A stretch of 59,242 bases of DNA from an uncultured Rickettsiales bacterium (GCA_964454545.1 CAYVTI010000010.1:1-59242); one strand, 5' to 3'; counted from the first letter of the stretch, positions 586 to 47,613 are shown. The notes: generated by a model from the letters alone, not told the origin. A program made the numbers and translations.

Positions 586-2156
586 AAAGCCGCTGCCAAT
601 AGCGCACGGGTATAATCCTCTTCAGGATGAGAGAAAATCTGGTCGGCGCTACCGCTTTCCACTATCCTGCCCTGCTGTAACACCACGATAGTATGGCTTA
701 TGGCGCGCACGACGCGCAGATCATGGCTGATGAACAGATAGGAAAGTCCATATTTCTGCTGCAATGCACTAAGCAGGTCGAGTATCTGCGCCTGCACGGA
801 GAGATCGAGCGCCGAAGTCGGCTCATCTAGAATAATCAGTTTGGGCCTTAGCACCAGCGCGCGCGCAATGCTGATGCGTTGCCGCTGGCCTCCGGAAAAT
901 TCATGTGGGTAGCGGTATTTCATCTCCGGCGAAAGCCCTACTTCAAGCAATATGCTGTCTACCTTATTCTCGCGTTCCTTCAGGGAAAGATTTTTCTCAT
1001 GAACATCCAGCCCTTCGCGGATAATCTCGCCGATATACATACGCGGGTTAAGGCTTGAATACGGATCCTGAAAAACAATCTGCATGTCACGCCGCTTATA
1101 TCTCAGTGCATCACCGGAAATTTTATCTATGCGTTCGCCGTCAAAAATAATTTCGCCACTGCTTTTCACTAGCCGGAGCAGCGCCAGAGCCAACGTAGTC
1201 TTTCCAGACCCCGACTCCCCCACAACGCCAAGCGTCGTTCCCTCCTGCACTGACAGATTGATACCGGAAAGTACACTTTTATAGGACTTCTTCCATGCCA
1301 GCAGCTTCCTGCTTTTCTCAAACTCAACAGCCAAATCACGGCACTTCATTATTACCAGCGCACCACCTGCCACCGGATACGGCCTGCTTTTAGGCTCTGA
1401 CGAAAGCAGGTGTCTCGTATAAGGATGCTTGGGATTGGCAAAAATCTCTTGCGTATTCCCCATTTCGACAATGCTTCCCTGCGTCATGATCGCAATACGG
1501 TCAGCCACCTTACGCACAATGGTCAAATCATGGGTAATCAGCAGCACCGACATACCCAATCTTTTGCGTAGTGATCTCAGTAGGTTAAGGATTTGCGCCT
1601 GTATGGTGACATCCAGCGCCGTCGTCGGCTCATCGGCAATCAGCAGTACCGGGTTATTGGCAATCGCGATGGCAATCATCACCCTTTGGCGCTCGCCGCC
1701 GGAAAGCTGGTGCGGGTAAGCGTCAAGCCGGTCTTTGAAGCTGCCAAGTCCTACCCCTTCAAGCAGTTCCACAACACGCGCATGCAGTTCCGCCTTGCTT
1801 AAATCATTATAGACTTCTATGGCCTCGCTAATTTGCCTGCCGATAGTGTGGAGCGGGTTGAGCGACGTCATCGGTTCCTGGAAAATCATCCCGGCATCTT
1901 TACCGCGCAAGCATGTGATCTGTGACTTGTGACCTGTGATCCGCAAATTCTCCTTACCAGCTACTGACCACTGGCCACTGGCAACTAAACCCTGCGGCAG
2001 CAAATCCATAATGGAAAGCGCGGTCAGTGTTTTGCCGGAACCAGACTCCCCGACCAGCGCCAGTATTTCACCCTTTTTTATGTCAAACGAGACATTGTTG
2101 ACGAGTTTCCTGTCGCCGATGAATACGGTCAGGTTATGCAGGGATAACGCCTTCAT
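582..2156 (-). CDS. yejF: ABC transporter ATP-binding protein with duplicated ATPase domains (YejF/oligopeptide-microcin C importer type)
   Basis: 524 aa with two Walker A motifs (GESGSGKT twice), two LSGG(E/Q)RQR signatures and two Walker B motifs ([16 protein letters not shown]). It overlaps the upstream permease gene by 4 nt. Confidence 0.85.
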
Positions 2157-3163
2157 GTCTGTTTTCTCGGATCAAAAGCCTGGCGCACCGCTTCGCCGAT
2201 AAATACCAGCAGGCTCAGCATGGCAGCCAATGTGATAAATCCGGTGATGCCAAGCCACGCAGCCTGAGGATTTGCCTTGCCCTGCGCCAGCAGTTCACCA
2301 AGCGACGGCGAACCCGGCGGCAGGCCAAAGCCAAGGAAATCAAGCGACGTCAGCGTCACGATGGAACCGTTCATCACAAACGGAATGAATGTAATCGTAG
2401 AGACAAGCGCGTTAGGCAGTACATGGCGGCTGATGATTTTCCATTCATTTACGCCCAGCGCGCGCGCCGCCCGCACGTAATCGAAATTGCGCGTGCGCAG
2501 GAATTCCGCGCGCACGACATGCACAAGCTGCATCCATGAAAAAAGCACCATCAGCCCGAGCAGCCACCAGATATTCGGCTCGACGATGCTCGCAAGTATG
2601 ATAAGCATGTAAATCTCCGGCAGCCCTCCCCAGATTTCCATAAAACGCTGGAACAGGAGATCGGTCAGACCGCCGAAATATCCCTGTACTGCGCCTGCCG
2701 TAATCCCTATGGCGGAACTGATGGCGGTCAGCGCGAGGCCAAACAGCATGGAGATGCGGAAGCCATATATAAGCCGCGCAAGCACGTCGCGCCCCTGATC
2801 GTCCGTGCCCAGCAGGTTTTCCTTTGAAGGCGGCGAAGGTGCAGGCACCGCGTCATAATTGATAGTCTTGTAGCTGTAATGTATGGACGGCCATATCATC
2901 CATCCGCCCGCATTGATTTTCTTCACTACATAGGGATCACGAAAATCCGCCTCCGTCTGGAAATCCCCACCGAAAGTAGTTTCCGGATAAAAGCGCAGGA
3001 CGGGAAAATAATAGTGGCCGTGATATTTAAGGATGATCGGTTTGTCGTTGGCAATAAACTCAGCAAAGAGGCTCAGAAAAAACAACACGGATAAGATGAT
3101 GAGCGACCAGAAACCGCGTTTGTTTGCGTAAAATAACCTTAATCTGCGGCCGCTGATATGCAT
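2153..3163 (-). CDS. yejE: ABC transporter permease (YejE / Dpp-Opp C-type)
   Basis: 336 aa, multi-pass and hydrophobic. Carries the GTDDQGRDVLARLIYG motif typical of DppC/OppC/YejE permeases. Coupled to yejF by a 4-nt overlap. Confidence 0.85.
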   Translation of the reverse strand: MHISGRRLRLFYANKRGFWSLIILSVLFFLSLFAEFIANDKPIILKYHGHYYFPVLRFYPETTFGGDFQTEADFRDPYVVKKINAGGWMIWPSIHYSYKTINYDAVPAPSPPSKENLLGTDDQGRDVLARLIYGFRISMLFGLALTAISSAIGITAGAVQGYFGGLTDLLFQRFMEIWGGLPEIYMLIILASIVEPNIWWLLGLMVLFSWMQLVHVVRAEFLRTRNFDYVRAARALGVNEWKIISRHVLPNALVSTITFIPFVMNGSIVTLTSLDFLGFGLPPGSPSLGELLAQGKANPQAAWLGITGFITLAAMLSLLVFIGEAVRQAFDPRKQT

Positions 3164-3180
3164 TGCAAGTCATGCGTTCA

Positions 3181-3678
3181 TCAGGTGGTGCCGCGGCCGG
3201 CATCGCCACGCGCCTGCGATTTGCCGACTGCCGTGGGAGCAAGAGCGCCAAGATCAGCTTCAGAAACAATCTTGATTTTCTCAACCATCACGCCATTGCT
3301 TGCCAGAACCTGCCCTTCCTGTTTTACCAATGTGGCAATATCAGGGCGCGCGCGCGCCAGCTTTACCACCCGCTCAAAAGCCTGCTGCGCTGAGATGGCA
3401 AGCGCATTGCGCAACCGGGCAAGCGTGCTGCGCGACGGCACATCAGCGCCGTCGCCTTTTGGCGCGCGCAGGCCACGTTTCTTGAGGGCAGCGGCAAATT
3501 TCTTTTTTATCTTCTCTTTTTGCTCGCCTGACGCCGAAGCCATCATCAGTTCAAGCAACTGCTCTATGTTTTCACCCTTAGCCGCTGCTTCAACCGCCTG
3601 AGCCACTACCTGATCCTGCTGGCTCTCCTGCTCCTTGTTGAAGTACTCCGCATCCTCGGAATTATAGTCGTTCGTCAT
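3181..3678 (-). CDS. Hypothetical protein (acidic N-terminus, K-rich centre, no Cys)
   Basis: 165-aa ORF on the same strand as dnaX-ybaB-yejEF. GGAG lies 5 nt upstream of the ATG. The overlapping plus-strand ORFs are Ala/Arg/Ser/Pro-rich shadow frames. I recognise no family motif. Confidence 0.5.
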   Translation of the reverse strand: MTNDYNSEDAEYFNKEQESQQDQVVAQAVEAAAKGENIEQLLELMMASASGEQKEKIKKKFAAALKKRGLRAPKGDGADVPSRSTLARLRNALAISAQQAFERVVKLARARPDIATLVKQEGQVLASNGVMVEKIKIVSEADLGALAPTAVGKSQARGDAGRGTT

Positions 3679-3704
3679 AAACGCTCCGTGCCATTAACGT
3701 TGTG

Positions 3705-4025
3705 TTAAAAAGGAAGTTTCATCCCCGGCGGCAGTCCCATGCCGCCTGCAATTTTCGCCATCTGGTCGTTCATATTGGCTTCTACCTTGCCCTTAGCGTC
3801 ATTGAAAGCCGCGATGACCAGATCCTCAAGCATTTCCTTTTCATTCGGATCGATCAGGCTTTTATCGATGCTAAGCTTCTTCGCCACCCCCTTGCCGTTC
3901 ATCGTGACGACGACCATGCCGCCTCCGGAACTGCCCTCACTTTCCTCTTCCTCAAGCCTGGCCTGCATGCTGGCGATCTTATTCTGCATTTCCTGTGCCT
4001 GCTTCATCATCTTCTGTATGTTCAT
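3705..4025 (-). CDS. ybaB: Nucleoid-associated protein YbaB/EbfC
   Basis: 106 aa. MMKQAQEMQ...MQ..L......G.SGGGMV.V.M.G......L.ID.SLIDP.....LEDL..AA.NDA is the YbaB signature. Located immediately downstream of dnaX, as is usual. Confidence 0.9.
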   Translation of the reverse strand: MNIQKMMKQAQEMQNKIASMQARLEEEESEGSSGGGMVVVTMNGKGVAKKLSIDKSLIDPNEKEMLEDLVIAAFNDAKGKVEANMNDQMAKIAGGMGLPPGMKLPF

Positions 4026-4029
4026 CGTA

Positions 4030-5682: not shown

Positions 5683-5763
5683 AAACAGTGGCGAGAGTTG
5701 AGCGGTTAGCAAAAATCGCCGCATAATTCGTTGCTATGGAGCAGAATTAGGCACGATTTTTAT

Positions 5764-5850
5764 GACTGGCGGTGACCCGATGCTTTACCTGCTACGGCTG
5801 CTTCCTCTCGGACCTGACCGGCTTCACAGGGGCACCGCCCACCGCCAGCC
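5764..5850 (-). ncRNA. ffs: Signal recognition particle RNA (small/4.5S type)
   Basis: The minus-strand sequence contains GGUCAGGUCCGAGAGGAAGCAGCC (the domain IV core). It is closed by a 9-bp terminal helix, CUGGCGGUG...CACCGCCAG. It sits upstream of dnaX, a common alphaproteobacterial position. Confidence 0.8.
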
Positions 5851-5907
5851 ATAAGCCACTATAGAATAAGTTAACGAAATACTGCAAGGAAAAGGTGCGG
5901 ATCGTCG

Positions 5908-6528: not shown

Positions 6529-6542
6529 GCTATTCTTATGCA

Positions 6543-6577
6543 CTTGCAACTTGCAACCTGCAACTTATAACTTAACT
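6543..6577. repeat. Degenerate tandem heptamer array, 5 units (cttgcaa cttgcaa cctgcaa cttataa cttaact)
   Basis: Read directly from the sequence. It occupies the divergent tmk/xthA spacer and ends 4 nt before the xthA ATG. Confidence 0.7.
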
Positions 6578-6581
6578 GCAT

Positions 6582-7373
6582 ATGAAAATAGCAACCTACA
6601 ACATCAACTCCGTCCGCATCCGCCTGAACGAGATCAAACAGGTAGTCAAAAAACTGGAGCCTGACATATTATGCCTGCAGGAAACCAAGGTTGAGAACTA
6701 TCTCTTCCCGGCAGAAGATGTAAAGAAGCTCGGCTTCGGACACGTCTATTTCAGCGGCCAGAAGAGCTATAACGGCGTGGCCCTGCTATCGCGCATTCCC
6801 CTGTATGATGTTACCAGCATGGATTTGCTGGACGTGGATCATAAACGCCATATCAGCGCGAGGCTCAGGAACGGCATTGAAATCCACAATTTCTATGTCC
6901 CGGCAGGCGGCGATATACCCGATCGCAGGCTGAACGAAAAATTCGACCAGAAACTGCGTTTCTGCGATGCCATGACCGCATGGGCAAAAAAATTGAAGGA
7001 CAAGAAACATCCGATAATCATCGCAGGCGATTTTAATATCGCGCCGCTTGAGCATGACGTCTGGTCGCACAGGCAGCTTCTCACTGTCGTAAGCCACACG
7101 CCGGTGGAGACCGAAGCGATGGAAAAATTCCGCCGGACGCTCGACTGGGTGGACACTTCCCGCCACTTTGTCCCGCATTCCGAGAAGCTCTACAGCTGGT
7201 GGAGCTACCGCAACCGGGACTGGAAAAAGTCCGACCGGGGCCGCAGGCTGGATCATATATGGATTACGCCGAACCTGCTGCCAAGCCTGAAATCCTCGCA
7301 TATCCTGCGTGAAGCCCGCGACTTCGCCAACCCTTCCGACCATGTGCCGGTGGTGACGGAACTGGATGTATAG
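6582..7373 (+). CDS. xthA: Exodeoxyribonuclease III
   Basis: 263 aa. MKIATYNINS.R........DILCLQETK...GDFN.AP...D......SDH.PV is the ExoIII/APE1 endonuclease pattern. Confidence 0.9.
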   Translation: MKIATYNINSVRIRLNEIKQVVKKLEPDILCLQETKVENYLFPAEDVKKLGFGHVYFSGQKSYNGVALLSRIPLYDVTSMDLLDVDHKRHISARLRNGIEIHNFYVPAGGDIPDRRLNEKFDQKLRFCDAMTAWAKKLKDKKHPIIIAGDFNIAPLEHDVWSHRQLLTVVSHTPVETEAMEKFRRTLDWVDTSRHFVPHSEKLYSWWSYRNRDWKKSDRGRRLDHIWITPNLLPSLKSSHILREARDFANPSDHVPVVTELDV

Positions 7374-7459: not shown

Positions 7460-9535
7460 TTAGAATCTTCCGGTGATGCCCAAGAGCACCTGGCGCTCAA
7501 GAGCGGGATATGGGCTGGCATCTGTAATTCTATGAGAAAGATTAGTCCCTGATAGAGCAAGCGTAAAATTATCGCTGATATTGTAACCTATGCGCCCTGC
7601 CAGGCTGGAGTAACCGTCCGTTGGTCTGACGACGTACCCGCTCCGCAGCATTTCGGTTGAAGTGACATATTGGGCGTTGGCGTCAACTTCCCAATTATGG
7701 AACGTATAGCCCCCCAGCAGTCGGAAGTGATGTTCCGGTGCCGACCCCTGGTAGTTGATGGACTGCTGGACGCGTGTTTGGTCTTTCAAGCTGGCGAGAC
7801 TGTAGCTGGCATCCCAGCGAAATCCGTCGTGAGCCCCTTTTACTTGTATTTCGCCACCTGCGCCCCAGCTGTCTCCAACATTGACGGCATAGGCAGCAAG
7901 GGTACGATTTCCAAACATGCCAACAGGCGAAAATTTTGTAGCCCAATACGCCGCCGTTATATCTGTGTTCGTTTCATAAAACAGGGAAAATTTTGCTTCT
8001 GAAAATAGGTTTAGCAGCTTACGGGTATAGTCAAGGTCATATTCCTCGACCACGGTAGGCTTCAGTTTTGGGTTGCCTTCCAGATCCAGGTAAAACGCCA
8101 CCGGGAAAACCTGCACCAAATTATCGCTACTCTCGATAAAGCTGGGTTGCTGGATACCACGTCCATAGCCTGCCCGTACGGAATCCACATCCGTTATCTT
8201 GTAATTCAGGCTGGAATTTGCACTCCATACACCATTCACATGCGAATAATCAGCATCACTGAAGACCGTCCCCGGCACCAGTGCGCCAAGGTTAGATGTC
8301 TGCCGGCGATCACCGCGAAGCGAGTTGGTGAATGTTATTTTATCATTAATCGTCCAGAGCCACGTGCCGCCGATGGAGTCGGTGGTTTCTCCCGTCTCAT
8401 AGCGTACGGGATAGGGAGGCAGTGAAAACTGACCGAAGGCATTGTATGAAATAGCGCCATCCCGGAATGTCTTATAGCGCTGCTCCAACGTAATGCGGAA
8501 CGTGTGATCCAGACCAACACGGAACTCATCCTGAATCTGGTTGGATAAGAGGGTCATGATGTTGACATAAAAATCACCCTCTTTGATGGAATAGTCTGAG
8601 TGATTCAGATAATTATCGGTTGATAATCTCCCAATAGGAGAATCCCACGTGGCCCCGCCTCTGAATGAATACGTGGTCGTATGCTGACCGGCCATGATAA
8701 AACCGGAGGTCGGATCGCTGGCATTGCCGATGCTCTCTGAATAGGTAGCCTCTCCGTTAAAGAGGAGACCGGGCGTGACTTTCACCACCGTGCTGTCGGT
8801 AATATAGCGATGGTACGGGGTAAGAATACCCTCCACTTCGTGGGGGTTTTGCTTCGTCGTGAATTCATCCACATTTAACCCGCCGGCTGAAATCTTGGTA
8901 CCGCCCCAATCGGCGTGCAAGGTAGTGGTAAAATCACCCACATACTCTTTTTGTGTGCCGATTCCAGCAAAAGCGACGTTGTTTTTGTCATACAACGGAC
9001 TATAGGTGACGATGTTAATTACGCCGCCAGCGGCATTAGTACCAAACAGGGCGGTAGCCGGGCCTTTTACCACTTCAATTTGCCGTATATCATCAATATT
9101 AACCGGCAGGTTCTCCCAAACCGTGCGGGAGAAGTCGTCAATAAAAACTTGCCTGCCGTCGATAAGCACCAGCAACCTTGGTTGCATCGGTTCCTGATAC
9201 CCACGCACTCCCACATCAAATACATTGATACCGGTATGGAGAATGTCCAGCCCTGGAACCCTGGAGAGAATATCGGGAATATTTCTGCTTCCTGATTGGC
9301 GGATCTCATCAGCGGTAATGATGGTCATATTGGCAGCAACTTCGCTGGCCCGCTGGGGCGTGCCGGTGGCACTGGTAGTAATAGGTTCTCCAAACATTGT
9401 TTGAAGAGAACCGTAATTTATGAATTGTGCATAACCAGGGGCGCTTAGACTTAAGGTAGCTATAAAAGCAGAAACAGCATAAAGAGACTTCCGTGCTTTA
9501 CCTTCATTATTTTTCCTTCTGCCTGTGTGATTCAT
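7460..9535 (-). CDS. TonB-dependent outer-membrane receptor
   Basis: 691 aa with a signal peptide. Plug-domain motifs are present (IITADEIRQSG..NIPDILSRVPG, IEVVKGPATALFGTNAAGGVINIVT), and the protein ends in a C-terminal aromatic residue (...LLGITGRF). Confidence 0.9.
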   Translation of the reverse strand: MNHTGRRKNNEGKARKSLYAVSAFIATLSLSAPGYAQFINYGSLQTMFGEPITTSATGTPQRASEVAANMTIITADEIRQSGSRNIPDILSRVPGLDILHTGINVFDVGVRGYQEPMQPRLLVLIDGRQVFIDDFSRTVWENLPVNIDDIRQIEVVKGPATALFGTNAAGGVINIVTYSPLYDKNNVAFAGIGTQKEYVGDFTTTLHADWGGTKISAGGLNVDEFTTKQNPHEVEGILTPYHRYITDSTVVKVTPGLLFNGEATYSESIGNASDPTSGFIMAGQHTTTYSFRGGATWDSPIGRLSTDNYLNHSDYSIKEGDFYVNIMTLLSNQIQDEFRVGLDHTFRITLEQRYKTFRDGAISYNAFGQFSLPPYPVRYETGETTDSIGGTWLWTINDKITFTNSLRGDRRQTSNLGALVPGTVFSDADYSHVNGVWSANSSLNYKITDVDSVRAGYGRGIQQPSFIESSDNLVQVFPVAFYLDLEGNPKLKPTVVEEYDLDYTRKLLNLFSEAKFSLFYETNTDITAAYWATKFSPVGMFGNRTLAAYAVNVGDSWGAGGEIQVKGAHDGFRWDASYSLASLKDQTRVQQSINYQGSAPEHHFRLLGGYTFHNWEVDANAQYVTSTEMLRSGYVVRPTDGYSSLAGRIGYNISDNFTLALSGTNLSHRITDASPYPALERQVLLGITGRF

Positions 9536-10107: not shown

Positions 10108-10363
10108 ATAAAACTTTCCTGCTATCAGACAAAAAAAACGGCAACCATCAATGAGCTATTTTAATCTTCCCCCTTTTTGTTCACTGTGGTGACAAAATAA
10201 ACACACCGCTTGTAGGCGTGACCATTCTTTCCGTGTCATCTTCTTAACCCGAATAATGGATAAGACTTTAGACATCATTGCCGTCCCTGCCCTTCGCAGG
10301 GATAAACCCCAGCGGCAATCTTTGTTCAACAGCCAGTGACCTGTGATAGAAAGATTATTATGG

Positions 10364-10588: not shown

Positions 10589-10695
10589 ATTTTTTGCTTG
10601 TAATATCACGTGAATAGCATTATAAAGCGGCAGTTAATAAAAGTAAGTAAAAAAGAAGGTGGGTCAAAAGCCCGCCTTTTTTGTTACCGACAGGA

Positions 10696-10750
10696 AGAGT
10701 TGAGTGGACAATTTTACTCAACTCTCAACCCTAATCGCTCAATTACTAGG
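10696..10750 (+). repeat. Hairpin (10-bp perfect stem agagttgagt/actcaactct) whose 3' arm continues as 5 tandem heptamers (actcaac tctcaac cctaatc gctcaat tactagg)
   Basis: Read directly. It ends 3 nt before the rimP ATG at 10754. The word agagttgagtg recurs at 12766. Confidence 0.7.
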
Positions 10751-12762: not shown

Positions 12763-12763
12763 C

Positions 12764-12784
12764 GAGAGTTGAGTGATCAGAGTT
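12764..12784. repeat. Tandem heptamers gagagtt gagtgat cagagtt; the last unit can pair with aactctg at 12799-12805
   Basis: Read directly. Starts 2 nt after the nusA stop codon. Confidence 0.6.
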
Positions 12785-12824
12785 TGGAATAAAGGCTGAA
12801 CTCTGGTTGCAGTCATTTTAAATT

Positions 12825-12859
12825 GACTACTCGCCACTCGCTACTAACCACCAGTCACT
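12825..12859. repeat. Degenerate tandem heptamer array, 5 units (gactact cgccact cgctact aaccacc agtcact)
   Basis: Read directly. Ends 10 nt before the infB ATG at 12870. Confidence 0.7.
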
Positions 12860-15770: not shown

Positions 15771-15805
15771 GTGACAGGTTGCAAGTTTCCAGTTGCAAGT
15801 AAGGA
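15771..15805. repeat. Degenerate tandem heptamer array, 5 units (gtgacag gttgcaa gtttcca gttgcaa gtaagga)
   Basis: Read directly. It fills the rbfA-truB spacer, and the last unit carries the likely Shine-Dalgarno sequence (aagga) for truB. Confidence 0.7.
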
Positions 15806-15810: not shown

Positions 15811-16716
15811 ATGAATCCCAAGAAATTTTCATACAACCTGCAACTCAATAACGGCTTTCTCATCCTCGACAAACCGACCGGCATTTCATCCGCCAAGGCC
15901 GTCTCAATCGTAAAGCATCTGTTGAAGTGTAAAAAGATCGGTCATTGTGGAACGCTTGATCCCCTCGCTTCGGGCATTCTTCCGCTTGCCATCGGCGAAG
16001 CGACCAAAGCCGCCGACTATGTCATGGGCAATGCCAAGGAATATATTTTTACCATCGCTTTTGGAGAGGAACGCTCAACGGATGACTGTGAAGGCAGCAT
16101 GACCGCAACAACCCCCATTATTCCAGGCCGGGAAGAAATATTGGGTGTGTTGCCTGAGTTTACCGGACGTATCATGCAGGCTCCACCCGCCTATTCCGCG
16201 ATCAAGGTAAACGGGGAGCGGGCATATAAGCTGGCAAGGTCCGGAGAAAATGTGGAAATGACGCCACGCGAGATAGAAATATATGATTTACAATTACTTG
16301 CAATATGCAACATGCAACATGCAACTTTCTCCGTTACCTGTGGGAAAGGCACCTATGTCCGCTCGCTTGCACGGGATATTGCAAGAAAATGCAATAGTTT
16401 AGGATATATATCGGCTTTAAGGCGAGTATCCGTAGGCAAATTTCACGAGAAGGATGCGATTTCGCTGGATAAATTACCGGAACTTGTGCATAATGCGCCG
16501 CTGCTTAAGGTATGGGTACCGATCGAATTGGCGCTGGACGACATCCCGGCAATCGATCTGCACCCGGATCAGGCACAGGCTTTACGCCATGGAAAAACCA
16601 TCCTTATGAATAAGCCGGATGGAAACTATATGGCGCTCTTTCAAGGTCAGATACTGGCATTGGCGGAAGTAACAGCTGGTGTGCTGCGATCCAAGCGCAT
16701 ATTTAACATTCATTAA
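15811..16716 (+). CDS. truB: tRNA pseudouridine(55) synthase TruB
   Basis: NGFLILDKPTGISS......V.........GHCGTLDPLASGILPLAIGEATK and CGKGTYVRSLARDI motifs. The ATG at 15811 is preferred to the TTG at 15793. Confidence 0.9.
   Translation: MNPKKFSYNLQLNNGFLILDKPTGISSAKAVSIVKHLLKCKKIGHCGTLDPLASGILPLAIGEATKAADYVMGNAKEYIFTIAFGEERSTDDCEGSMTATTPIIPGREEILGVLPEFTGRIMQAPPAYSAIKVNGERAYKLARSGENVEMTPREIEIYDLQLLAICNMQHATFSVTCGKGTYVRSLARDIARKCNSLGYISALRRVSVGKFHEKDAISLDKLPELVHNAPLLKVWVPIELALDDIPAIDLHPDQAQALRHGKTILMNKPDGNYMALFQGQILALAEVTAGVLRSKRIFNIH
16298..16325. repeat. Heptamer array inside truB: ttgcaat then three perfect copies of atgcaac
   Basis: Read directly (16305-16325 = atgcaac x3, 21 nt, in frame). 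It encodes ...AICNMQHAT... in a variable segment before the CGKGTY motif. Confidence 0.75.
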
Positions 16717-17000: not shown

Positions 17001-17014
17001 TCAGACTGTTTATT

Positions 17015-17046
17015 CCCGCCATTCCAGGAATGGCGGGAGGTTTTGG
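17015..17046 (+). terminator. rpsO terminator / pnp leader hairpin
   Basis: cccgccatt-ccagg-aatggcggg is a 9-bp GC-rich stem followed by aggttttgg, 15 nt after the rpsO stop. An attenuating hairpin between rpsO and pnp is well known in E. coli. Confidence 0.65.
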
Positions 17047-17124
17047 ATGGGCAACTCTCCCCTGCCTGTTTGGATTGATGGTTGGAATTGTATGAACAGG
17101 GGACGTTAGAAAAAGGATAAATCA

Positions 17125-19254
17125 ATGTTTAAAATTGCTAAAAGACAAGTCCAGTGGGGTAATAATACTCTCACGCTGGAAACCGGGAAAATTGCACGTC
17201 AGGCCGACGGGGCGGTGCTTGCCACCTATGGCCAGACGATGGTGCTTTGCACCGTGGTAGGTCAGAAAAAAGTTAATCCCGATATGGATTTCTTCCCGCT
17301 TACCGTAAACTACCAGGAAAAGACTTTCGCCGCCGGTAAAATCCCAGGCGGCTTTTTCAAGCGCGAAGGGCGCCCATCCGAAAAGGAAGTGCTGACCTCC
17401 CGTTTGATCGACAGGCCTATCCGCCCGCTTTTCCCGGACGGTTTCTTCAATGAAGTGCAGGTAGTCTGTACTCTTCTTTCTTATGATTTGGAAAACGATC
17501 CAGATGTCGTAGCGCTCGTCGGCGCATCCGCCGCGCTCACCCTTTCCGGCATCCCGTTCATGGGCCCCATTGCCGGTGGCCGTGTTGGCTATATCGATGG
17601 CCAGTACGCGCTCAACCCAACGAAGAGCGAGCTTAAAAACAGCAAGCTGGACCTCGTGGTCGCAGGCACGCAGAGCTCGGTGCTCATGGTGGAATCGGAA
17701 GCGCAGGAACTCTCCGAAGAAGTGATGCTGGGTGCCGTGATGGCAGGCCATAAAGGCTTCCAGCCGGTGATTGACGCTATCATCTCCCTGGCTGAAGAAG
17801 CGGCCAAGGATCCGTGGGAACTGGCAGCCAATCCGCAGGAAGATGAAATCAAAGCTCAGCTTAAGGCCACAGGCGAAGCGAAGCTCCGCGAAGCTTTCAA
17901 GATTAAAGGCAAGCAGGAACGTTCCAACCGCCTCGATGAAATCAAGAAGGAAATCTGCACTCCCCTGGTAGAGGCAGGCGCTTCCGCAGTGCAGGCGAAC
18001 CGTCTCTTCAAGGCGCTGGAAAGCGAAGTGGTGCGTCATGATATGGTGACCACCAAAAAGCGCATCGACGGACGCGGCGAAGCCGACATCCGTCCAATCG
18101 TCGCCGAAGTAGGAGTGCTGCCGAAAGTACACGGCGCAGCGCTCTTTACCCGCGGTGAAACGCAGGCGCTTGTGGTTGCCACGCTCGGCACCAGCATGGA
18201 TGAGCAGATCATCGACGCGCTGGAAGGAGAGTATAAAGAGTCTTTTATGCTTCATTACAACTTCCCGCCCTACTCGGTCGGCGAAGTGGGCCGCCTCGGT
18301 TCTCCGGGACGCCGTGAAATCGGGCATGGTAAGCTTGCATGGCGCGCCATTCACCCGCTCATGCCGGTGAAGGACAATTTTCCCTACACTATCCGTGTCG
18401 TTTCCGAGATCACGGAATCGAATGGTTCATCTTCTATGGCAACCGTCTGCGGCACCTCGCTCGCGCTGATGGATGCAGGTGTTCCCCTTTCCCGTCCGGT
18501 TGCTGGCATCGCAATGGGATTGATCAAGGAGAAGGAAAAATTCGTCGTCCTCTCTGATATCATGGGCGATGAAGATCACCTTGGCGATATGGATTTCAAG
18601 GTAGCCGGAACCGAAAGCGGTATCACTGCCCTGCAGATGGATATCAAAATCAACGGCATTACCGAAGAAATCATGAGAGTGGCGCTTACGCAGGCTCAGG
18701 CCGGCCGCAAGCATATTCTCGGCGAAATGGCGAAAGCTTTGACCACCTCCCGTGGCACCGTCAATGACAACGCGCCGCGCATTACCACCATATCGATCCC
18801 GAAGGATAAAATCCGCGAAGTGATCGGCACCGGCGGAAAAGTAATCCGTGAGATCGTGGAGAAAACCGGAGCCAAGGTGGATATCGAGGATGATGGCACC
18901 GTCAGGGTGGCTGCCGTTAACAGCGAGCAGGGCAAAGCCGCGCTCGACTGGATTAACAGCATCGTGGCTGAAGCTGAAATCGGCAAGATTTATGCCGGTA
19001 AAGTTGTACGTATCGTGGATTTTGGCGCGTTCGTCAATTTCCTCGGCAGCAAGGACGGCCTCGTGCATATCAGCGAAATGGCCGATCACCGCGTCAACAA
19101 GGTGACCGATGTCGTCAATGAAGGCGATATGGTGAAAGTCAAGGTCATCGACATCGAACGCGGCAAAGTGCGCCTCTCCATGAGAGTAGTCGACCAGCAG
19201 ACCGGTGAGGACATCACGGACCGCGTCGGCCAGTCCAGAAAGAAACAGGCGTAA
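17125..19254 (+). CDS. pnp: Polyribonucleotide nucleotidyltransferase (PNPase)
   Basis: 709 aa. Two RNase PH-like domains ([18 protein letters not shown]), a KH domain ([11 protein letters not shown]) and an S1 domain ([13 protein letters not shown]). Confidence 0.97.
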
Positions 19255-19847: not shown

Positions 19848-20068
19848 AAAAAACGCCTTTGTTGGCTGACGACCAGCTGGGTTGGAAGGAGAGGCACGCT
19901 TCAAAACAGGAAAATATGCCTGTTCCCAGAGGTAAATAAGAAAACGCGCGGAAGCGATATGTTTATAAGCGGATTACATAAAGTTGTTATAAACATGCCT
20001 CCTTCATCATGGCTGGACAATTTACTGAAAATATATTAACACTTAAAGCATCCTTCACGGGGGAGAAT

Positions 20069-20530: not shown

Positions 20531-20560
20531 TCCGTCTGCATAGGATAGAGGGGACGGCCT

Positions 20561-26663: not shown

Positions 26664-26771
26664 TATCGCGTTCCTTCCAAAAGGATAACACTCTCACTTT
26701 TAATTTATTCTACCACTTTATTGCTGCGTAACAAATGAACCTTTTATGACAAATTCTCTTAAGCCCTTGTA

Positions 26772-28661
26772 TTACCTGGGTGTAGTTTTGGCGGCCCCTC
26801 CTGCCAATTCCTGAACACTCTCTTTCTGTTCAGGCGTAGGAACAGTTATGCTGCGCACCACGTCCTGCGCATTTACTTGCTTATTGGCCACTCCTATTTC
26901 TATCTTGTCCATCTGTGGTATCATTTTTTCCAGGTGGTTTATCTTTTCTCTCAATACCCCAACTTCTTCTTTTAATGCGGCTATTTCAGGAGAAACGTTC
27001 TGAGGATTGGAGGACGCAGGCGAGGTAACGGAAATAGCTTGCACGGGTGCAGATATGGTTGTGTTCGCGGCATGTGAATCGGACGATGGCTGGTCTGCAA
27101 CCGGCGTCTTGGTCTCTTCGAGAGAAGCGCTCTTTCCGCCTGAGCGCGACAGGACAGCGGCCTGTTCCGCCTGCGGGTGTTTCCGATCGTATTCCTCCTG
27201 TGCATATCCCACCTGGGCGGCGGTCAACCCCTTGCCGACTATGGACCATTGCGGCACATCGCATCCTTCCAGCGTGATCTGGATAACCTCAACATTAGTA
27301 ATCCCCTGCTCTTCAAGAGCGCGCTTGTAACCTTCCATTTCTCGTTTCTGCTGGGCAAGCGCGGTTTCGCTGCTAGCAAAATCCGGAGCGATTACAGCCT
27401 TCCTGCCCGCCAGTTCTTTCAATGACTCCTCTGAAATATTCACATAGGCATTATCCTGCGGCGGAGAGAAATATTTTTCTATGAGCGCCCCCCTTTCCAC
27501 TCCCAGGGCCTGCTCGATCTCTGCCAGCACTTTTTTCTTCTTTTCATCGTCCATGCCAAAATAATATTCATGGCCTGCGGCTGCAGCGCTGCCAAGTCTC
27601 TCGGCCATGCCCGACTTATCTTTGGACTTGGAATCCTTCTCACCGTCTTTTTCCTTATCCTTGCCTTTACCCTGCTCTTTTGCATCCACCTCTATTCCGC
27701 GCGCCTTAAGCCCGTCTATGATGCCAGACCGGATAGCAATTTTATTAGCGGCAATTTCCTTATCCTTGCGCCCGATACCAATGGAGGCAAGTCCGTTCCC
27801 AACCGTCGCGCCTATAAGGCCGCTTATGCCGCCTACAGATCCCGCACCCCACAAAATTCCCTTGCCGATATAATTTTTATGTTTATGGGCTCTTATCGCC
27901 TCAACGCTTTCTTCTATCTGCAGCGGGCTCTCGGCATAACCCATCAGCCTGCGGTTCGCCATGACCGCTTCCCTGTCCGTACCGTCGATAGCGTTTCCTA
28001 TCGTTCTGGCAAGACCTACTACAAAGCCTCCTGCGCCGCCGATGATGGCCAAGGGAATAGCTGTTATTAAACCCACTCCGGTCCCGGTCACCTGCGCTGC
28101 TTTTCTTGCTCTCTGTCCAATCCTTTCACCCGCAGTCATATGGTCGGAGAAAATTTCCTCCACGATCTTGTCTACGTCCTTACCGCTTATTTTTTTGCCG
28201 TCTTCAATATCGTTCAGCGCCCCGGCAACGCGGCCATAGTTATAATATTCCGTCAGCTTATCAATATTGCCCTTTGTCGGCTGATAACCGGTATTTTCTA
28301 TGGATCTCAGCATTGCGGCAGAAAGCGGTTCTTCCTTATTCCACAGAATCAGCCCGTCAAGCGTGCTGACCGTTTTTCCCTCGGCTATCTGCTGCTCTAC
28401 CCTGTCCCTTGCCGCGATGGTGACACGTTCGAGAAGCTTTCTGCTGCTTTCGTCCAGCCCCTCTTCCATAAAATTTTTCTTCTCGGCTTCTATGGCTTCC
28501 GGCGAGTATCCCGCTGCGATCTTAGCGCCGAGGTCAGTAGCCTTATTATACATTTCCGCCGTAATGGCATCCAGGTTCGCATAAGCGGGAGTGCCCGGCT
28601 GCGCTATCTGTGCCTTCAATGCCTGTATGTCATTGCGCGACAATATCCGATCTATAGACAT
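26772..28661 (-). CDS. Hypothetical large protein P1 (helical N-domain, two Gly-zipper segments, KD-rich linker, C-terminal coiled coil)
   Basis: 629 aa. GAGGA lies 5 nt upstream of the ATG. Hydrophobic segments are VTGTGVGLITAIPLAIIGGAGGFVVGLARTIG and GILWGAGSVGGISGLIGATVGNGLASIGIG. The low-complexity linker is KEQGKGKDKEKDGEKDSKSKDK, and the coiled coil is EIAALKEEVGVLREKINHLEKM. No catalytic motif recognised. Confidence 0.65.
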   Translation of the reverse strand: MSIDRILSRNDIQALKAQIAQPGTPAYANLDAITAEMYNKATDLGAKIAAGYSPEAIEAEKKNFMEEGLDESSRKLLERVTIAARDRVEQQIAEGKTVSTLDGLILWNKEEPLSAAMLRSIENTGYQPTKGNIDKLTEYYNYGRVAGALNDIEDGKKISGKDVDKIVEEIFSDHMTAGERIGQRARKAAQVTGTGVGLITAIPLAIIGGAGGFVVGLARTIGNAIDGTDREAVMANRRLMGYAESPLQIEESVEAIRAHKHKNYIGKGILWGAGSVGGISGLIGATVGNGLASIGIGRKDKEIAANKIAIRSGIIDGLKARGIEVDAKEQGKGKDKEKDGEKDSKSKDKSGMAERLGSAAAAGHEYYFGMDDEKKKKVLAEIEQALGVERGALIEKYFSPPQDNAYVNISEESLKELAGRKAVIAPDFASSETALAQQKREMEGYKRALEEQGITNVEVIQITLEGCDVPQWSIVGKGLTAAQVGYAQEEYDRKHPQAEQAAVLSRSGGKSASLEETKTPVADQPSSDSHAANTTISAPVQAISVTSPASSNPQNVSPEIAALKEEVGVLREKINHLEKMIPQMDKIEIGVANKQVNAQDVVRSITVPTPEQKESVQELAGGAAKTTPR

Positions 28662-28846
28662 AACTTCCTCTTTCTACTGAACAATATCCATCTGCGGACA
28701 TGGCTATACTGTTCTACTATTATCCTAGCATCATACTATATTTTCCAAGCGTGAAGAACAAGTTAACATCTTATGACAGTTTGGTTACAAATTTATGACA
28801 TGTGCCGATAATGCAATGAGGCGTAAGAAATATCCGGATTGGCAAC

Positions 28847-28887
28847 AAAAAAAATACCCCGGCTTATAATGTTACAAGCCGGGGTAT
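28847..28887 (-). terminator. Rho-independent terminator of the 28912-29304 gene
   Basis: On the minus strand, a 12-bp stem (ataccccggctt/aagccggggtat, 10-nt loop) is followed by eight T. It lies 25 nt after the stop codon. Confidence 0.8.
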
Positions 28888-28911
28888 CGTTACCGAACAG
28901 ATATCTATGGT

Positions 28912-29304
28912 TTAGTTGGCAGAATCAGGACGCGCTCTGTGTTCACGGAGTTTGTGATCCCGGCGTTCCTGCCTTCTCTTTTCGAATTTCTCTTTCCTCA
29001 TTTCATGATTCAGCCTGCGCTGTTCGGCTTTGGTAATGTGGCCGCCATGCTTCGCTTCATCGCGGTTCAACTGGCTCTGGGTGCGCTGATCGCGCCTTTC
29101 ATCACGTTCGGCCTGTCCTTCGGTAAGTTTACCGTTTTTCTCAGCACGCTCGGTATTGTTTTCCTGATGCTCAAGGCGGTTTTCCACCTGGTTGATGCGC
29201 GGATGGCCCGGATCTTCTGATTGTTCTTGCGCAATGACCGGAGATGAGAGTATGGTGCCTGCAGTCAGTGAAAGTATGACTGTGCTTAAGAAGCAAATTT
29301 TCAT
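28912..29304 (-). CDS. Hypothetical exported, highly charged protein
   Basis: Signal peptide MKICFLSTVILSLTAGTILSSPVIA, then an R/E/Q/K-rich mature part with a two-fold pattern (GKLTEGQAERDERR... / GGHITKAEQRRLNHE...). AGGGA lies 6 nt upstream of the ATG, and the gene has its own terminator. Confidence 0.6.
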   Translation of the reverse strand: MKICFLSTVILSLTAGTILSSPVIAQEQSEDPGHPRINQVENRLEHQENNTERAEKNGKLTEGQAERDERRDQRTQSQLNRDEAKHGGHITKAEQRRLNHEMRKEKFEKRRQERRDHKLREHRARPDSAN

Positions 29305-29493
29305 AAAATGTCCCTTTTTGTTACACTCAGTTATCGACAGCAATAACTGGTTAAAGCCCACTATAGCAAAATAGACATTGCAGTATTTTCATGGAAACAT
29401 TAATAAAATGCAATAATCATAATTATGTTTACATTTTGAATAGTTATCATACAAATTCGCAAACCGTGACCTCGTGGGAGAATAGGAGAATAT

Positions 29494-30675
29494 ATGTCAG
29501 ATCATGATATCGTAATAGTGAGCGCATTGCGTACGGCAATAGGCTCTTTTAACGGCACACTTGCTTCCCTTCCGGCGCACAAGCTGGGTGAGCATGTAAT
29601 CAAGGCAATCCTGCAACAAACGAAAGTAAACCCCGGAGAAATTTCCGAAGTGATTCTGGGTCAGATTCTGACTGCGGCAGCCGGGCAGAATCCGGCGCGC
29701 CAGGCATCGATCAATGCCGGCGTTCCCAAAGAAGTCCCGGCATGGGGGCTGAACCAGGTATGCGGATCGGGGCTGCGCGCTGTCTGCCTTGGCTACCAAG
29801 CTATCCGGAATGGCGACAGCCATATGGTGATCGCAGGCGGGCAGGAAAGCATGAGCCAGGCACCGCATGCCAAGAACCTGCGCACGGGTGTCAAGATGGG
29901 CGATGCCACTTTCGTGGATACCATGATACTGGATGCCCTTACCGACGCTTTTCACCATATCCACATGGGTGTCACCGCCGAGAATATCGCCAAGCAATTT
30001 AACATATCGCGCGACGAGCAGGATGAATTTGCCGCACGCTCCCAGCAGAAATGCGAAGCGGCGATGAAAGAAGGTAAGTTCAGGGAAGAAATTGTCCCGG
30101 CAGTCATTGCCGACCGCAAAGGCGAGATAACCATTGACAAAGACGAATTTCCGCGCGCCGGAGTCACGAAAGAGTCCCTCGTCAAGCTGAAACCTGCCTT
30201 CATCAAGGACGGTACCGTTACCGCAGGCAACGCCTCCGGCATTAACGACGGCGCTGCCGCCGTATTGCTCATGACACGCAAGGAAGCCGACAAACGCGGA
30301 CTGCCTGTACTTGCCAAAATAGTATCATGGGCACATGCAGGCGTTGATCCCGCCATCATGGGCACCGGCCCTATCCCTGCAAGCCAGAAAGCGCTTGCAA
30401 AAGCCGGATGGAATGTTGGCGATCTTGATCTCATAGAAGCCAACGAAGCTTTCGCCGCACAGGCCATTTCGGTCAATATGAACATGAAGTGGGATGTGTC
30501 CAAGGTTAATGTCAATGGCGGCGCCATTGCGCTTGGGCATCCGGTAGGCGCATCCGGCGCCCGCATTCTTACTACGCTCCTGCATGAAATGAACCGTCGT
30601 AATGCAAAGAAAGGCATTGCCACTCTCTGCATCGGCGGCGGAATGGGTATTGCCATGTGCGTGGCGAGGGATTAG
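29494..30675 (+). CDS. phaA: Acetyl-CoA C-acetyltransferase (thiolase II)
   Basis: 393 aa. Has the active-site Cys context NQVCGSGLRAV and the C-terminal NVNGGAIALGHPVGASGARI...LCIGGGMG. Confidence 0.93.
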   Translation: MSDHDIVIVSALRTAIGSFNGTLASLPAHKLGEHVIKAILQQTKVNPGEISEVILGQILTAAAGQNPARQASINAGVPKEVPAWGLNQVCGSGLRAVCLGYQAIRNGDSHMVIAGGQESMSQAPHAKNLRTGVKMGDATFVDTMILDALTDAFHHIHMGVTAENIAKQFNISRDEQDEFAARSQQKCEAAMKEGKFREEIVPAVIADRKGEITIDKDEFPRAGVTKESLVKLKPAFIKDGTVTAGNASGINDGAAAVLLMTRKEADKRGLPVLAKIVSWAHAGVDPAIMGTGPIPASQKALAKAGWNVGDLDLIEANEAFAAQAISVNMNMKWDVSKVNVNGGAIALGHPVGASGARILTTLLHEMNRRNAKKGIATLCIGGGMGIAMCVARD

Positions 30676-30681
30676 TAATTC

Positions 30682-30754
30682 GTTGTTCGTTTTTAGTTGT
30701 TAGCTGTTCAAATAATGGAGAAAACCAACAACTAACAACAACTAACAACCGAAC
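30682..30754. repeat. GTTGTT-type heptamers (gttgttc gttttta gttgtta gctgttc) facing a complementary AACAAC-type repeat (caactaacaa x2); imperfect inverted repeat
   Basis: Read directly. gttgttag (30696-30703) can pair with ctaacaac (30732-30739 or 30742-30749). Fills the phaA-phaB spacer and ends 12 nt before the phaB ATG. Confidence 0.65.
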
Positions 30755-30766
30755 TAAGGAGAAAGT

Positions 30767-38293: not shown

Positions 38294-38383
38294 GGAGAGG
38301 TGGCAGAGTGGTCGAATGCGGCGGTCTCGAAAACCGTTATAGCCGCAAGGCTATCGAAGGTTCGAATCCTTTCCTCTCCGCCA
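38294..38383 (+). tRNA. tRNA-Ser (anticodon CGA)
   Basis: Hand-folded. Acceptor stem GGAGAGG/CCTCTCC plus G-CCA, anticodon stem GCGGT/ACCGT with loop CTCGAAA, a long variable arm TAGCC-GCAA-GGCTA and T-loop GGTTCGAATCC. Confidence 0.95.
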
Positions 38384-46819: not shown

Positions 46820-46951
46820 ATGCCAACACCGGATAATGATGAAGATAAACAGGAGAATCAGAATACCGAGGAAAAGACGATTGGTCCTGCCCAGGACAGC
46901 GACAGGCTGGCGCACTGGCACCGTTTCTATTTCTACTCGGAAACAGATTAA
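46820..46951 (+). CDS. Possible small acidic ORF (43 aa)
   Basis: AAGGAG lies 7 nt upstream of the ATG. Product is MPTPDNDEDKQENQNTEEKTIGPAQDSDRLAHWHRFYFYSETD. It is below the ORF-track cut-off and has no homology evidence. Confidence 0.25.
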   Translation: MPTPDNDEDKQENQNTEEKTIGPAQDSDRLAHWHRFYFYSETD

Positions 46952-46984
46952 TGCGCCGCCTGAATTCACTGGTAGCCTGGCGAC

Positions 46985-47545
46985 ATGATTCCCACGTTTG
47001 AGATAATACCCATGTCAGTATGGCGCATGCCAATCCTGCTGCTTTCCCTGCTGCCGGGAATTGCGGCCTGTTGCATGGAAAATGCCGAACTCAAGGAACA
47101 ACACAAAGGTGATTTGCGCGCCTTCCCTTCCCCTCCCGGTGTCTACCGGCATTGGGTGATTTCGGCACAGGCGGCGGCGCGTGATGGAACACGTATCTGC
47201 ACGGTATCCATAGACGAAATTGATATCACCCAGCGCGCTTACGGCGACTCCCTTGCTGTGCAGGTTGAAACATCCTATCCCCCGGAACCGGGCGCTTTTT
47301 ACACCCTTATAGTGAACGGCCACCGTTATGGCATACCGAATGGTTATTTCAATACCGCGCAATCACAGCGCATTATCGATGACTTCAGTGACGCCGATGT
47401 TCTCCATATCGAATGGAAGGGGGCCTCTTTCAGGGCAGATAGCCTTCAGCGCCTGTTAATCGATACGTTGCCGCTGAAAGGATTTAAACATGAGTATAAT
47501 GCCTGTACGCGTTCTGTTCTCGCCAGGGCATATCCATTGCAATGA
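46985..47545 (+). CDS. Hypothetical exported/lipoprotein-like protein
   Basis: 186 aa. Signal/lipobox-like LLLSLLPGIAAC. No family recognised with confidence. The start may instead be the ATG at 47012. Confidence 0.5.
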   Translation: MIPTFEIIPMSVWRMPILLLSLLPGIAACCMENAELKEQHKGDLRAFPSPPGVYRHWVISAQAAARDGTRICTVSIDEIDITQRAYGDSLAVQVETSYPPEPGAFYTLIVNGHRYGIPNGYFNTAQSQRIIDDFSDADVLHIEWKGASFRADSLQRLLIDTLPLKGFKHEYNACTRSVLARAYPLQ

Positions 47546-47547
47546 AT

Positions 47548-47613
47548 CCAACAACAACTAATAATTACGCCGGTTACAGACCAGGCGTATCTATCCCAAG
47601 TTGTTTTCTGTTG
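47548..47613. repeat. AACAAC-type repeat (ccaacaacaacta) facing a GTTGTT-type repeat (agttgttttctgttg); second locus of the phaA-phaB spacer motif class
   Basis: Read directly. Starts 3 nt after the stop of the 46985-47545 gene. Confidence 0.5.

Follow-up and report, generated by a model that had tools for sequence, protein, structure and literature searches.

What are the short, degenerate tandem arrays of 7-nt units that are dispersed over a 59,242-nucleotide stretch of DNA from an uncultured Rickettsiales bacterium (GCA_964454545.1 CAYVTI010000010.1:1-59242; below, "the window" means this whole stretch), and how could they have arisen? The window belongs to the chromosome of an uncultured alphaproteobacterium and has a G+C content of about 52%. 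An earlier analysis, the sequence-only reading, had described at least nine loci with such arrays as a family situated at gene junctions. The period-7 family is real and well above chance, and most of its arrays are the arms of inverted pairs forming stem-loops of 13-30 bp. To the following explanation we give about an even chance: these are lineage-restricted inverted heptamer arrays resembling the STRR repeats of cyanobacteria and the heptamer arrays of Xanthomonas, with the hairpin as the basic unit. Periodicity, pairing, placement, lineage distribution and population stability are observed; an origin by slippage and a probable role as intercistronic RNA stem-loops are inferred.

Period-7 arrays and their hairpins

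Tandem structure was scored along gap-free diagonals at lag p (+1 for a match, -2 for a mismatch, threshold 10), with 100 order-3 Markov shuffles as the background. At lag 7 the window contains five arrays (1914-1939, 1963-1986, 6542-6574, 16299-16325 and 30679-30708), compared to 0.13 +/- 0.36 in the shuffles, none of which reaches five. All other periods from 2 to 15 yield 0-1 arrays each. Tandem Repeats Finder (TRF) independently assigns period 7 to five of 13 distinct arrays, and these are the same five loci. A looser test, set at the level of degeneracy used in the sequence-only reading (at least 17 of 28 lag-7 matches in 35 nt, that is, five units), finds nine segments against 1.52 +/- 1.22 expected and a shuffle maximum of 5. 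It adds 12822, 15766 and 30712, as well as a site at 5833. Non-coding DNA makes up 7.9% of the window, yet it holds six of the nine segments (p = 1.7e-5). Thus the scan proposed in the sequence-only reading, when run on the window, shows a specific enrichment of period 7, and the arrays are period-7 long simple sequence repeats in the sense of Mrazek 2007. The match at 5833-5858 falls within the gene for the SRP RNA and has no relation to the heptamer family.

All array strings quoted earlier were found in their places; only the second site of AGAGTTGAGTG starts at 12765, one base from the 12766 given. The family is non-random, but two of the loci listed earlier are not arrays: 10335-10348 has two units with 4/7 lag-7 matches, and the weaker candidate at 17068-17095 has 6/21, the chance level. 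The latter is the loop of a CCCCTG...CAGGGG stem in the pnp leader and was rejected. The loci 12764-12784 (9/14 matches) and 10716-10750 (14/28) are not separable from chance by periodicity alone, but both pair as hairpin arms. The location at gene junctions is right in part; the arrays at 1914, 1963 and 16298 lie in frame inside yejF and truB. The recurrence of sequence classes at unlinked loci was seen again: GTGACCTGTGAT, a 12-mer, is found at 1929 and 10336, AACTTGCAACCT at 6548 and in reverse complement at 15776, AACAACAACTAA at 30734 and 47550, and AGAGTTGAGTG at 10696 and 12765. Each class has 2-3 loci within 59 kb. The elements are the following:

1908-1991, minus strand: in-frame hairpin in yejF, residues ~56-83, AGTGG/TCAC core class
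6543-6577, plus strand: tmk/xthA array, CTTGCAA CTTGCAA CCTGCAA CTTATAA CTTAACT, in a divergent 53-nt spacer
10696-10750, plus strand: rimP-leader element, AGAGTTGAGTGGA caat TTTACTCAACTCT, with a perfect 13-bp hairpin at 10696-10725
12763-12859, plus strand: nusA-infB element, AGTG/CACT core class, with inner hairpins
15771-15805, plus strand: weak units between rbfA and truB, GTTGCAA GTTTCCA GTTGCAA, TTGCAA class, ending 5 nt before the truB ATG
16298-16325, plus strand: in-frame array in truB, TTGCAAT ATGCAAC ATGCAAC ATGCAAC
30679-30755, plus strand: intercistronic phaA-phaB hairpin of GTTGTTM/TAACAAC units
47549-47613, plus strand: related hairpin not of period 7, CAACAACAACT ... AAGTTGTTTTCTGTTG around a G+C-rich inner stem

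Each hairpin consists of two inverted arrays of 2-5 degenerate 7-nt units apiece. The conserved 4-5-nt cores pair between the arms (AGTGG with CCACT, GTTGTT with AACAAC, GAGTTGAGT with ACTCAACTC), and the remaining 2-3 positions of the unit drift, leaving small internal loops at every 7 nt. The stems are built of core helices of 5-6 bp separated by internal loops of 1-2 nt. The window contains four inverted pairs (1914/1963, 10696/10716, 12764/12825 and 30679/30723), all of the Xanthomonas type, that is, two arrays of one unit on opposite strands, close together and convergent. Further pairs are present in the related loci L001, L002, L003, L006, L010 and L087. The sequence-only reading had overlooked the partners at 1963-1986 and 30723-30755 and the pairings 10696/10716 and 12764/12825. 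The TTGCAA-class arrays (6543, 15771, 16298) have no separate partner; their units are self-complementary.

Compared to shuffled sequences, the most stable folds are those of the rbfA-truB hairpin of L001 (z-score -5.1), the hairpin at 47549 (-21.5 kcal/mol, z -4.8), the rimP leader (-16 to -18.6 kcal/mol, z -3.1) and phaA-phaB (-18.3 kcal/mol, z -2.3). The nusA-infB element (-27 kcal/mol, z -1.8) and the yejF hairpin (z -1.4) are weaker. In the latter the sense strand folds with -27.1 kcal/mol and 7 G-U pairs, the antisense strand with -14.4. Strand-specific selection on RNA was considered for 18 hairpins and rejected, as their fold energies and G-U counts show no consistent bias. In 15 of the 18 the 5' arm is G+T-rich; this polarity is strand-symmetric and thus uninformative on the direction of transcription. 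Intrinsic terminators were also rejected, since a weak T-run occurs only at the inner nusA-infB stem and the other hairpins have no U-tracts.

The hairpins occupy short spacers between co-directional genes, such as the rimP leader, nusA-infB and phaA-phaB. The 5' arm begins 1-3 nt past the upstream stop codon (1 nt after nusA, 3 nt after phaA, 3 nt after the open reading frame (ORF) 46985-47545), the 3' end lies 3-30 nt before the next start, and the Shine-Dalgarno sequence is left free outside the stem. The same stop-to-start placement is seen in the rimP-nusA-infB-rbfA-truB-rpsO-pnp operons of the window, L001, L002, L003, L006 and L010. The exceptions are in-frame copies situated where a conserved protein has a loop of variable length; of the five strongest arrays, three lie within yejF and truB. 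Five arrays had been said to end within 3-12 nt of a start codon, with a positional bias towards gene starts. Indeed, 3' arrays end 3-11 nt ahead of the ATG codons of xthA, rimP, infB, truB and phaB. However, the array at 30682-30709 ends 57 nt upstream of phaB, and it is its previously unlisted partner at 30723-30755 that reaches the start. The apparent bias is explained by hairpins filling short intercistronic spacers, as the 5' arm is equally regular after the upstream stop; it is one half of this spacer-filling geometry.

One possibility suggested by this position is that the C/A-rich start-proximal arrays are single-stranded RNA sites to which a protein resembling S1, Csp, CsrA or Hfq would bind and so regulate or enhance translation. 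The arm next to phaB resembles an (AAC/ARN)n tract, no Shine-Dalgarno sequence can be recognised for xthA, and the TAACTGA repeats of Beggiatoaceae provide a precedent (PMC4679880). However, most arrays are paired with a complementary arm and hence double-stranded, the units belong to several unrelated classes, and strong copies lie within coding sequence far from starts. This makes such sites quite unlikely.

In the mRNA sense, the 5' arm of the yejF hairpin is AGTTGCC AGTGGCC AGTGGTC AGTAGC (window 1963-1986), and the 3' arm is GATCACA GGTCACA AGTCACA GATCACA (1914-1941). TRF reports period 7 for both arms, at 1914-1939 and 1963-1986, and their lag-7 scores are 10 and 11. The hairpin aligns with hairpins of L003 and L006; its covariance model score of 71.7 bits is that of a training sequence. 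The loop encoded by the hairpin is 2-11 amino acids longer than in homologues of YejF. The best of these are 55-66% identical, too distant to serve as an empty site, so that only loop length can be compared.

The 3' arm of yejF resembles WATCACW, the heptad bound by the omega repressor of pSM19035. Together with the invariant 4-5-bp core at an exact 7-bp phase and the convergent orientation, this could indicate operator- or centromere-like heptads in double-stranded DNA, bound cooperatively by a small DNA-binding protein. However, the cores fall into at least four unrelated types, the sites lie between or within genes of housekeeping operons and not at promoters, and no candidate gene for a binding protein is found nearby. 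We regard this possibility as very improbable.

The array between tmk and xthA ends 4 nt ahead of the xthA ATG and has no inverted partner. Its TRF score is 43 and its lag-7 score 14; the fold is not significant (z -1.6). It is identical in three metagenome samples. Within 6544-6581, the array includes TTGCAA-N16-TATAAC, some 10 nt ahead of the xthA ATG. It may also serve as a promoter whose xthA transcript is leaderless or nearly so.

In the rimP leader, the 3' arm continues beyond the perfect hairpin as degenerate nCTCAAn units up to 10750, 3 nt before the ATG. This hairpin is absent from the orthologous leaders of L082, L083, L003, L006 and L010. In L001 (~8380-8420) the rimP leader has a period-12 tandem repeat, CCTGTGCAATAC CCTTTGCAATAC CCTGCGGAATC, where the window has the heptamer hairpin. 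A different, strongly conserved hairpin, GGTGGGC(N3-6)GCCCGCC, followed by the T-run TTTTTTG, is found at 10658-10683 of the window. All relatives examined (L001, L002, L003, L004, L006, L008, L010, L081-L083, L085) have it 20-90 nt upstream of rimP, often preceded by a TTGA..TATA promoter-like pair. It has the appearance of a terminator or attenuator in the leader of the rimP-nusA-infB operon.

The nusA-infB element has the 5' arm GAGAGTT GAGTGAT CAGAGTT immediately after nusA and the 3' arm GACTACT CGCCACT CGCTACT AACCACC AGTCACT, which has 17/28 lag-7 matches and ends 10 nt ahead of the infB ATG. It scores 58 bits with the covariance model, again as a training sequence. The weak units between rbfA and truB also have 17/28 matches, do not fold significantly (z 0.1) and share a 12-mer, in reverse complement, with the array upstream of xthA; the same spacer of L001 contains a strong heptamer hairpin. 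The truB array, unchanged in metagenome contigs, is the best in the window (TRF score 47, lag-7 score 17). It encodes part of LAICNMQHAT, a variable loop just ahead of the conserved CGKGTY motif in the TruB alignment. Further downstream, the rpsO-pnp spacer of the window (17013-17105) contains an ordinary terminator-like stem, CCCGCCATTCCAGGAATGGCGGG, and then the CCCCTG...CAGGGG stem. It resembles a classical pnp leader and, unlike the same spacer of L002, L006 and L010, has no heptamer periodicity.

The 5' arm of the phaA-phaB hairpin is TTC GTTGTTC GTTTTTA GTTGTTA GCTGTTC. The 3' arm, CCAACAAC TAACAAC AAC TAACAAC CGAA, stops ~11 nt short of the phaB ATG, leaving the AAGGAG Shine-Dalgarno sequence free. 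TRF assigns period 7 to 30679-30709 and period 10 or 3 to 30726-30749; the lag-7 scores are 11 and 8. The hairpin at 47549, situated upstream of a CHASE3 hybrid kinase gene, has AACAACAACTAA in common with the phaA-phaB 3' arm, and the nearby site 47649 carries the reverse complement of AATAATGGAGAA, common to the phaA-phaB loop.

Distribution in relatives and soil populations

The closest relatives by InfB are metagenome-assembled genomes (MAGs) labelled Alphaproteobacteria or "Rickettsiales". L001 has 76% InfB identity to the window, the metagenome contigs L081 and L082 have 79-80%, and L002-L006 have 64%. We scanned 160 related loci, namely the 13 nearest to the window and 147 others from Alphaproteobacteria. 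The window and its 13 related loci contain 13 arrays in 279 kb (46.6 per Mb), whereas the 147 other loci contain nine in 2.22 Mb (4.0 per Mb; binomial p = 7.6e-8). At other periods the clade has 0-2 arrays, and outside it period 7 is no commoner than periods 8-13. Thus the period-7 excess is lineage-specific.

L003 and L006 are the richest, with a heptamer hairpin in nearly every spacer of the nusA-infB-rbfA-truB-rpsO-pnp region. The core classes recur in relatives at both orthologous and non-orthologous sites. An AGTGG/CCACT core is common to the nusA-infB spacers in the window, L003 and L006, with strong arrays in the latter two; the rpsO-pnp spacers of L002/L085 and L010, and weakly that of L004, contain CTAGG-type units. 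In L006, a hairpin of 4+4 AGTGRCT units occupies exactly the truB loop that contains the TGCAAC array in the window, and lengthens the protein by 11 residues. Six AGTGG-class elements from three genomes (yejF and nusA-infB of the window, nusA-infB and truB-rpsO of L003, nusA-infB and truB of L006) can be aligned, with invariant GTG/CAC columns at 7-nt spacing. A covariance model of this class recovered its training members and weaker matches on other hairpins of the clade, and no new members in the window. The 5' arms of the phaA-phaB hairpin of the window and of the rbfA-truB hairpin of L001, a non-orthologous site, agree at 26 of 28 positions.

The distribution is patchy, and the closest relatives have no arrays. 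L081-L083 (76-80% InfB identity) have plain hairpins or none in the spacers of the rimP-to-pnp operon. In four relatives whose synteny is conserved and whose PhaB is 83-90% identical, the phaA-phaB spacer is unstructured, lacks the hairpin and has 52-56 nt, compared to 91 nt in the window; about 75 kb of these relatives contain no period-7 array. The hairpins of the rimP leader and the rbfA-truB spacer are likewise present in some relatives and absent from others.

The near-identity of arms at unrelated loci and the patchiness make a copying or mobile mechanism the main rival explanation. The hairpins would then be miniature mobile or copied elements, similar to REP/REPIN, Rickettsia palindromic elements (RPE) or the small dispersed repeats of cyanobacteria, that insert after stop codons and sometimes in frame, and the heptamer arms would be either the recognition site of a mobilising enzyme or a later elaboration. 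The 26/28 arm, the AGTGG-class element at four kinds of site in three genomes, presence and absence in orthologous spacers and the in-frame insertion in truB of L006 all agree with it. However, only the 4-5-nt cores, not whole elements, are conserved between copies, and neither a target-site duplication nor fixed termini can be seen at the phaA-phaB insertion. A search of the four source metagenomes, with the genome at ~5x, yielded no further copy of the phaA-phaB element with at least 80% identity, which shows that it is not a high-copy miniature inverted-repeat transposable element. REPINs travel with a RAYT transposase (Y1 HUH); no transposase or RAYT-like gene was seen among the window ORFs scanned, and the covariance model adds no further copies in the window. 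On balance we consider mobility somewhat unlikely.

A stronger version, which we find unlikely, is that in certain lineages an active and possibly horizontally acquired agent writes short heptamer hairpins, drawn from a few defined core classes, into new places, some of them in frame within essential genes. If this were true, it would amount to an ultra-small mobile repeat system in Alphaproteobacteria, comparable to the small dispersed repeats of cyanobacteria. It would explain the near-identical arm in two genomes, the complete absence of arrays in the closest relatives, and the presence of one AGTGG core in three genomes, at yejF, truB and two spacers.

The source genome is present at ~5x depth in four soil-metagenome runs of one study, with 80-94% of sampled words found. 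The arrays are reproduced base for base in independent contigs from up to four of these metagenomes and are therefore not assembly artefacts. At 1914/1963, 6543, 16299, 30679 and 47549 there are no substitutions or indels in up to four samples, although in contigs from ~5x depth rare variants would be missed. The arrays are unchanged even on a variant-strain contig that differs at four nearby positions. The sole exception is the rimP-leader hairpin of a co-occurring strain in run X4, which is 8 nt shorter and has two substitutions, all within 10708-10724, in the loop and the first 3' unit. As this variant shows, any change that does occur is concentrated in the repeat. The polymorphism in unit number that the sequence-only reading had proposed to look for was thus not observed at these six arrays.

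The arrays do not look like phase-variable loci. The X4 variant could suggest hypermutable loci subject to phase variation, and four loci (10335, 12764, 17068, 10716) are individually within chance, as expected of random low-complexity runs. Both possibilities are highly unlikely. The shuffles never reach the observed counts of the main arrays; 1914, 1963, 6543, 16299, 30679 and 47549 are identical across samples, including the nearby-differing strain; and a change by one 7-nt unit in truB or yejF would shift the frame of an essential or conserved gene.

In a separate lineage with 69% G+C, (TCAGAAG)n arrays lie immediately after infB (L087 7960-8093, L011 6166-6188). In L087 they form a perfect inverted pair of ~34 bp around a 67-nt loop.

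Known heptamer repeats and possible origin

According to PMC4679880 and PMC4692102, which summarise Mrazek 2007, heptanucleotides are the most abundant class of long simple sequence repeats in most bacterial genomes, and polymerase slippage is hypothesised to be favoured at 7 nt. The sequence-only reading knew tandem heptamers only as STRR, which that survey contradicts, as do GGGAATC in Xanthomonas and TAACTGA in Beggiatoaceae. Its comparison with STRR is nevertheless apt. Between hupS and hupL the 7-bp repeats of STRR fold into hairpins, for which a role in raising transcript stability or coupling translation was proposed (PMC2670836). The arrays described here have in common with STRR the 7-nt unit, short degenerate tandem arrays, several unit classes (here each at 2-3 loci in 59 kb), a mostly intergenic position and hairpins between co-transcribed genes. 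However, those of the window are shorter (2-5 units) and more degenerate, and the host is a soil alphaproteobacterium with alphaproteobacterial MAGs as relatives. The units of STRR are CCCCAGT, TTGGTCA and CAACAGT, whereas here they are AGTGGCC, GTTGTTA, TTGCAAC and CTCAACT. Thus these are not STRR in the strict sense, which includes both the units and a heterocystous cyanobacterial host.

In Xanthomonas there are 70-75 convergent inverted pairs of GGGAATC arrays, and the repeat type is preserved between species (Rehm et al. 2015, PMC4692102). Nostoc has GGGGAYT heptamer repeats (PMC4692102). The similarity to Xanthomonas lies in the intergenic heptamer arrays, the inverted pairs able to form stem-loops, and the conservation of place with turnover of sequence. 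Unlike the G-rich, quadruplex-forming units of Xanthomonas and Nostoc, those found here are mostly not of this kind, and several core classes coexist. The units of the window contain no G3 tracts; the nearest are GGGATTC in L006 and CTAGGGG in L002/L010. The L006 unit is found in the rpsO-pnp spacer (17084-17161), where the 3' arm (CGAATCC)4.5 reads GGGATTC on the other strand. It is one base from GGGAATC, and every unit includes GANTC, the motif methylated by CcrM in Alphaproteobacteria.

The TAACTGA repeats of Beggiatoaceae occur in 2-6 copies a few nucleotides upstream of starts, often without a canonical Shine-Dalgarno sequence (MacGregor 2015, PMC4679880). Their sets are direct in 169 cases and indirect in one, and some copies overlap ORFs or lie inside them (PMC4679880). 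The start-proximal position, the copies in ORFs and the patchy phylogenetic distribution are similar. However, TAACTGA is a single direct unit, whereas here there are several classes, mostly with inverted partners, and the arrays are not of this type.

REP-type repeats are short intergenic palindromic elements after stop codons (PMC3116915). The present hairpins are likewise short, palindromic and placed after stops. They have in-frame copies (truB of L006, yejF of the window) and in this respect resemble RPE by description. RPEs also occur in frame inside conserved genes; the copies here are shorter (66-84 nt, compared to ~100-150 bp). REP and RPE are multi-copy, near-identical whole elements without a 7-nt periodicity, whereas here the cores alone are common, and the search at 80% identity returned the phaA-phaB locus itself rather than many near-identical copies.

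Full-text literature searches found no description of such heptamer arrays in Alphaproteobacteria, in agreement with the sequence-only reading, which was not aware of them at alphaproteobacterial gene junctions. The kind of repeat is already known; the host lineage, the unit sequences, the coexisting core classes and the in-frame copies in truB and yejF are different. To our knowledge, neither a function nor a generating mechanism has been established for any heptamer tandem repeat.

If the arrays are indeed lineage-restricted relatives in kind of the STRR and Xanthomonas repeats, they would most likely originate by mispairing or slippage in a 7-nt register in particular lineages. Several unrelated cores sharing one 7-nt register point to a mutational or structural cause rather than to one sequence-specific protein. 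Arm-to-arm correction or short-patch copying may then act on them, with pairing of the stem in several registers keeping the cores while unpaired positions drift. The retained copies would most likely act as intercistronic mRNA stem-loops, by analogy with the hupS-hupL STRR and with classical stem-loops. Such a stem-loop might be a barrier to 3' exonucleases that guards the 3' end of the upstream cistron, or a processing site. A ribosome terminating at the adjacent stop may also open the stem and expose a C/A-rich unstructured stretch before the next ribosome binding site, which would couple translation of the two genes.

Several observations weigh against this explanation. Simple slippage explains neither the 26/28 identity of arms at non-orthologous sites of two genomes nor the occurrence of one core class in yejF, truB, truB-rpsO and nusA-infB of different genomes. 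The closest relatives are free of arrays, a patchy distribution that gain through an agent would explain as well as a mutational bias. The absence of unit-number variation at five arrays across the four metagenomes means that slippage is not frequent now. As to the RNA level, folds at the TTGCAA-class loci (6530, 15769, 16285) are no better than those of shuffles, sense and antisense folds are equal overall, with the sense strand more stable in 8/18 hairpins, and selection on RNA rather than DNA is nowhere indicated, except for the yejF copy that needs G-U pairs.

Array-rich genomes (the window, L003, L006) beside array-free close relatives, with orthologous spacers that do or do not contain a hairpin, provide a compact comparative system. 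A contrast of gene content between the two groups could point to the factor that creates the 7-nt periodicity, and the location inside operons makes roles in stabilisation, processing and coupling directly testable. As a caution for annotation, long extensions of ORFs and unusual peptide loops in these MAGs can derive from repeats.

Genes and other features of the window

Gene identities were confirmed with NCBIfam and Pfam. An Rfam scan of the window returned tRNA-Ser and the SRP RNA as the sole matches, and no known RNA family at the arrays. The features are:

582-2156, minus strand: yejF (ABC ATPase)
5758-5853, minus strand: SRP RNA, between dnaX and tmk
6549, listed start (TTG) of tmk, divergent from xthA
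6582-7373: xthA
10754: ATG of rimP
15811: ATG of truB
20561-22138, plus strand: prfC
29494-30675: phaA
30767-31495: phaB
38294-38383, plus strand: tRNA-Ser(CGA)
Elsewhere in the window: dnaX, yidD, nusA, infB, rbfA, rpsO and pnp; topA, recN, ligA, an RND efflux operon and the CHASE3 hybrid kinase gene

Read directly from the sequence, the true start of tmk is likely the ATG at 6528. Integron attC sites were considered for the hairpins and rejected: the cores of attC are RYYYAAC (R'') and GTTRRRY (R'), which do not fit, and the genes belong to housekeeping operons.

A block of five consecutive ORFs (150, 164, 150, 629 and 149 amino acids) at 25227-29361 on the minus strand has no Pfam match; the same block is found upstream of phaA in the relatives L164 and L165. 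A 555-amino-acid ORF at 20036-21703 (minus strand), antisense to prfC and with no family match, is almost certainly a shadow ORF. Finally, inside the CHASE3 hybrid histidine kinase gene (48508-48562) there is a 21-nt tandem repeat, GAAGAGCTGGAAGCCTCCAAC, in 2.6 copies with 67% matches. It is probably a 7-residue coiled-coil repeat and not a member of the heptamer family.

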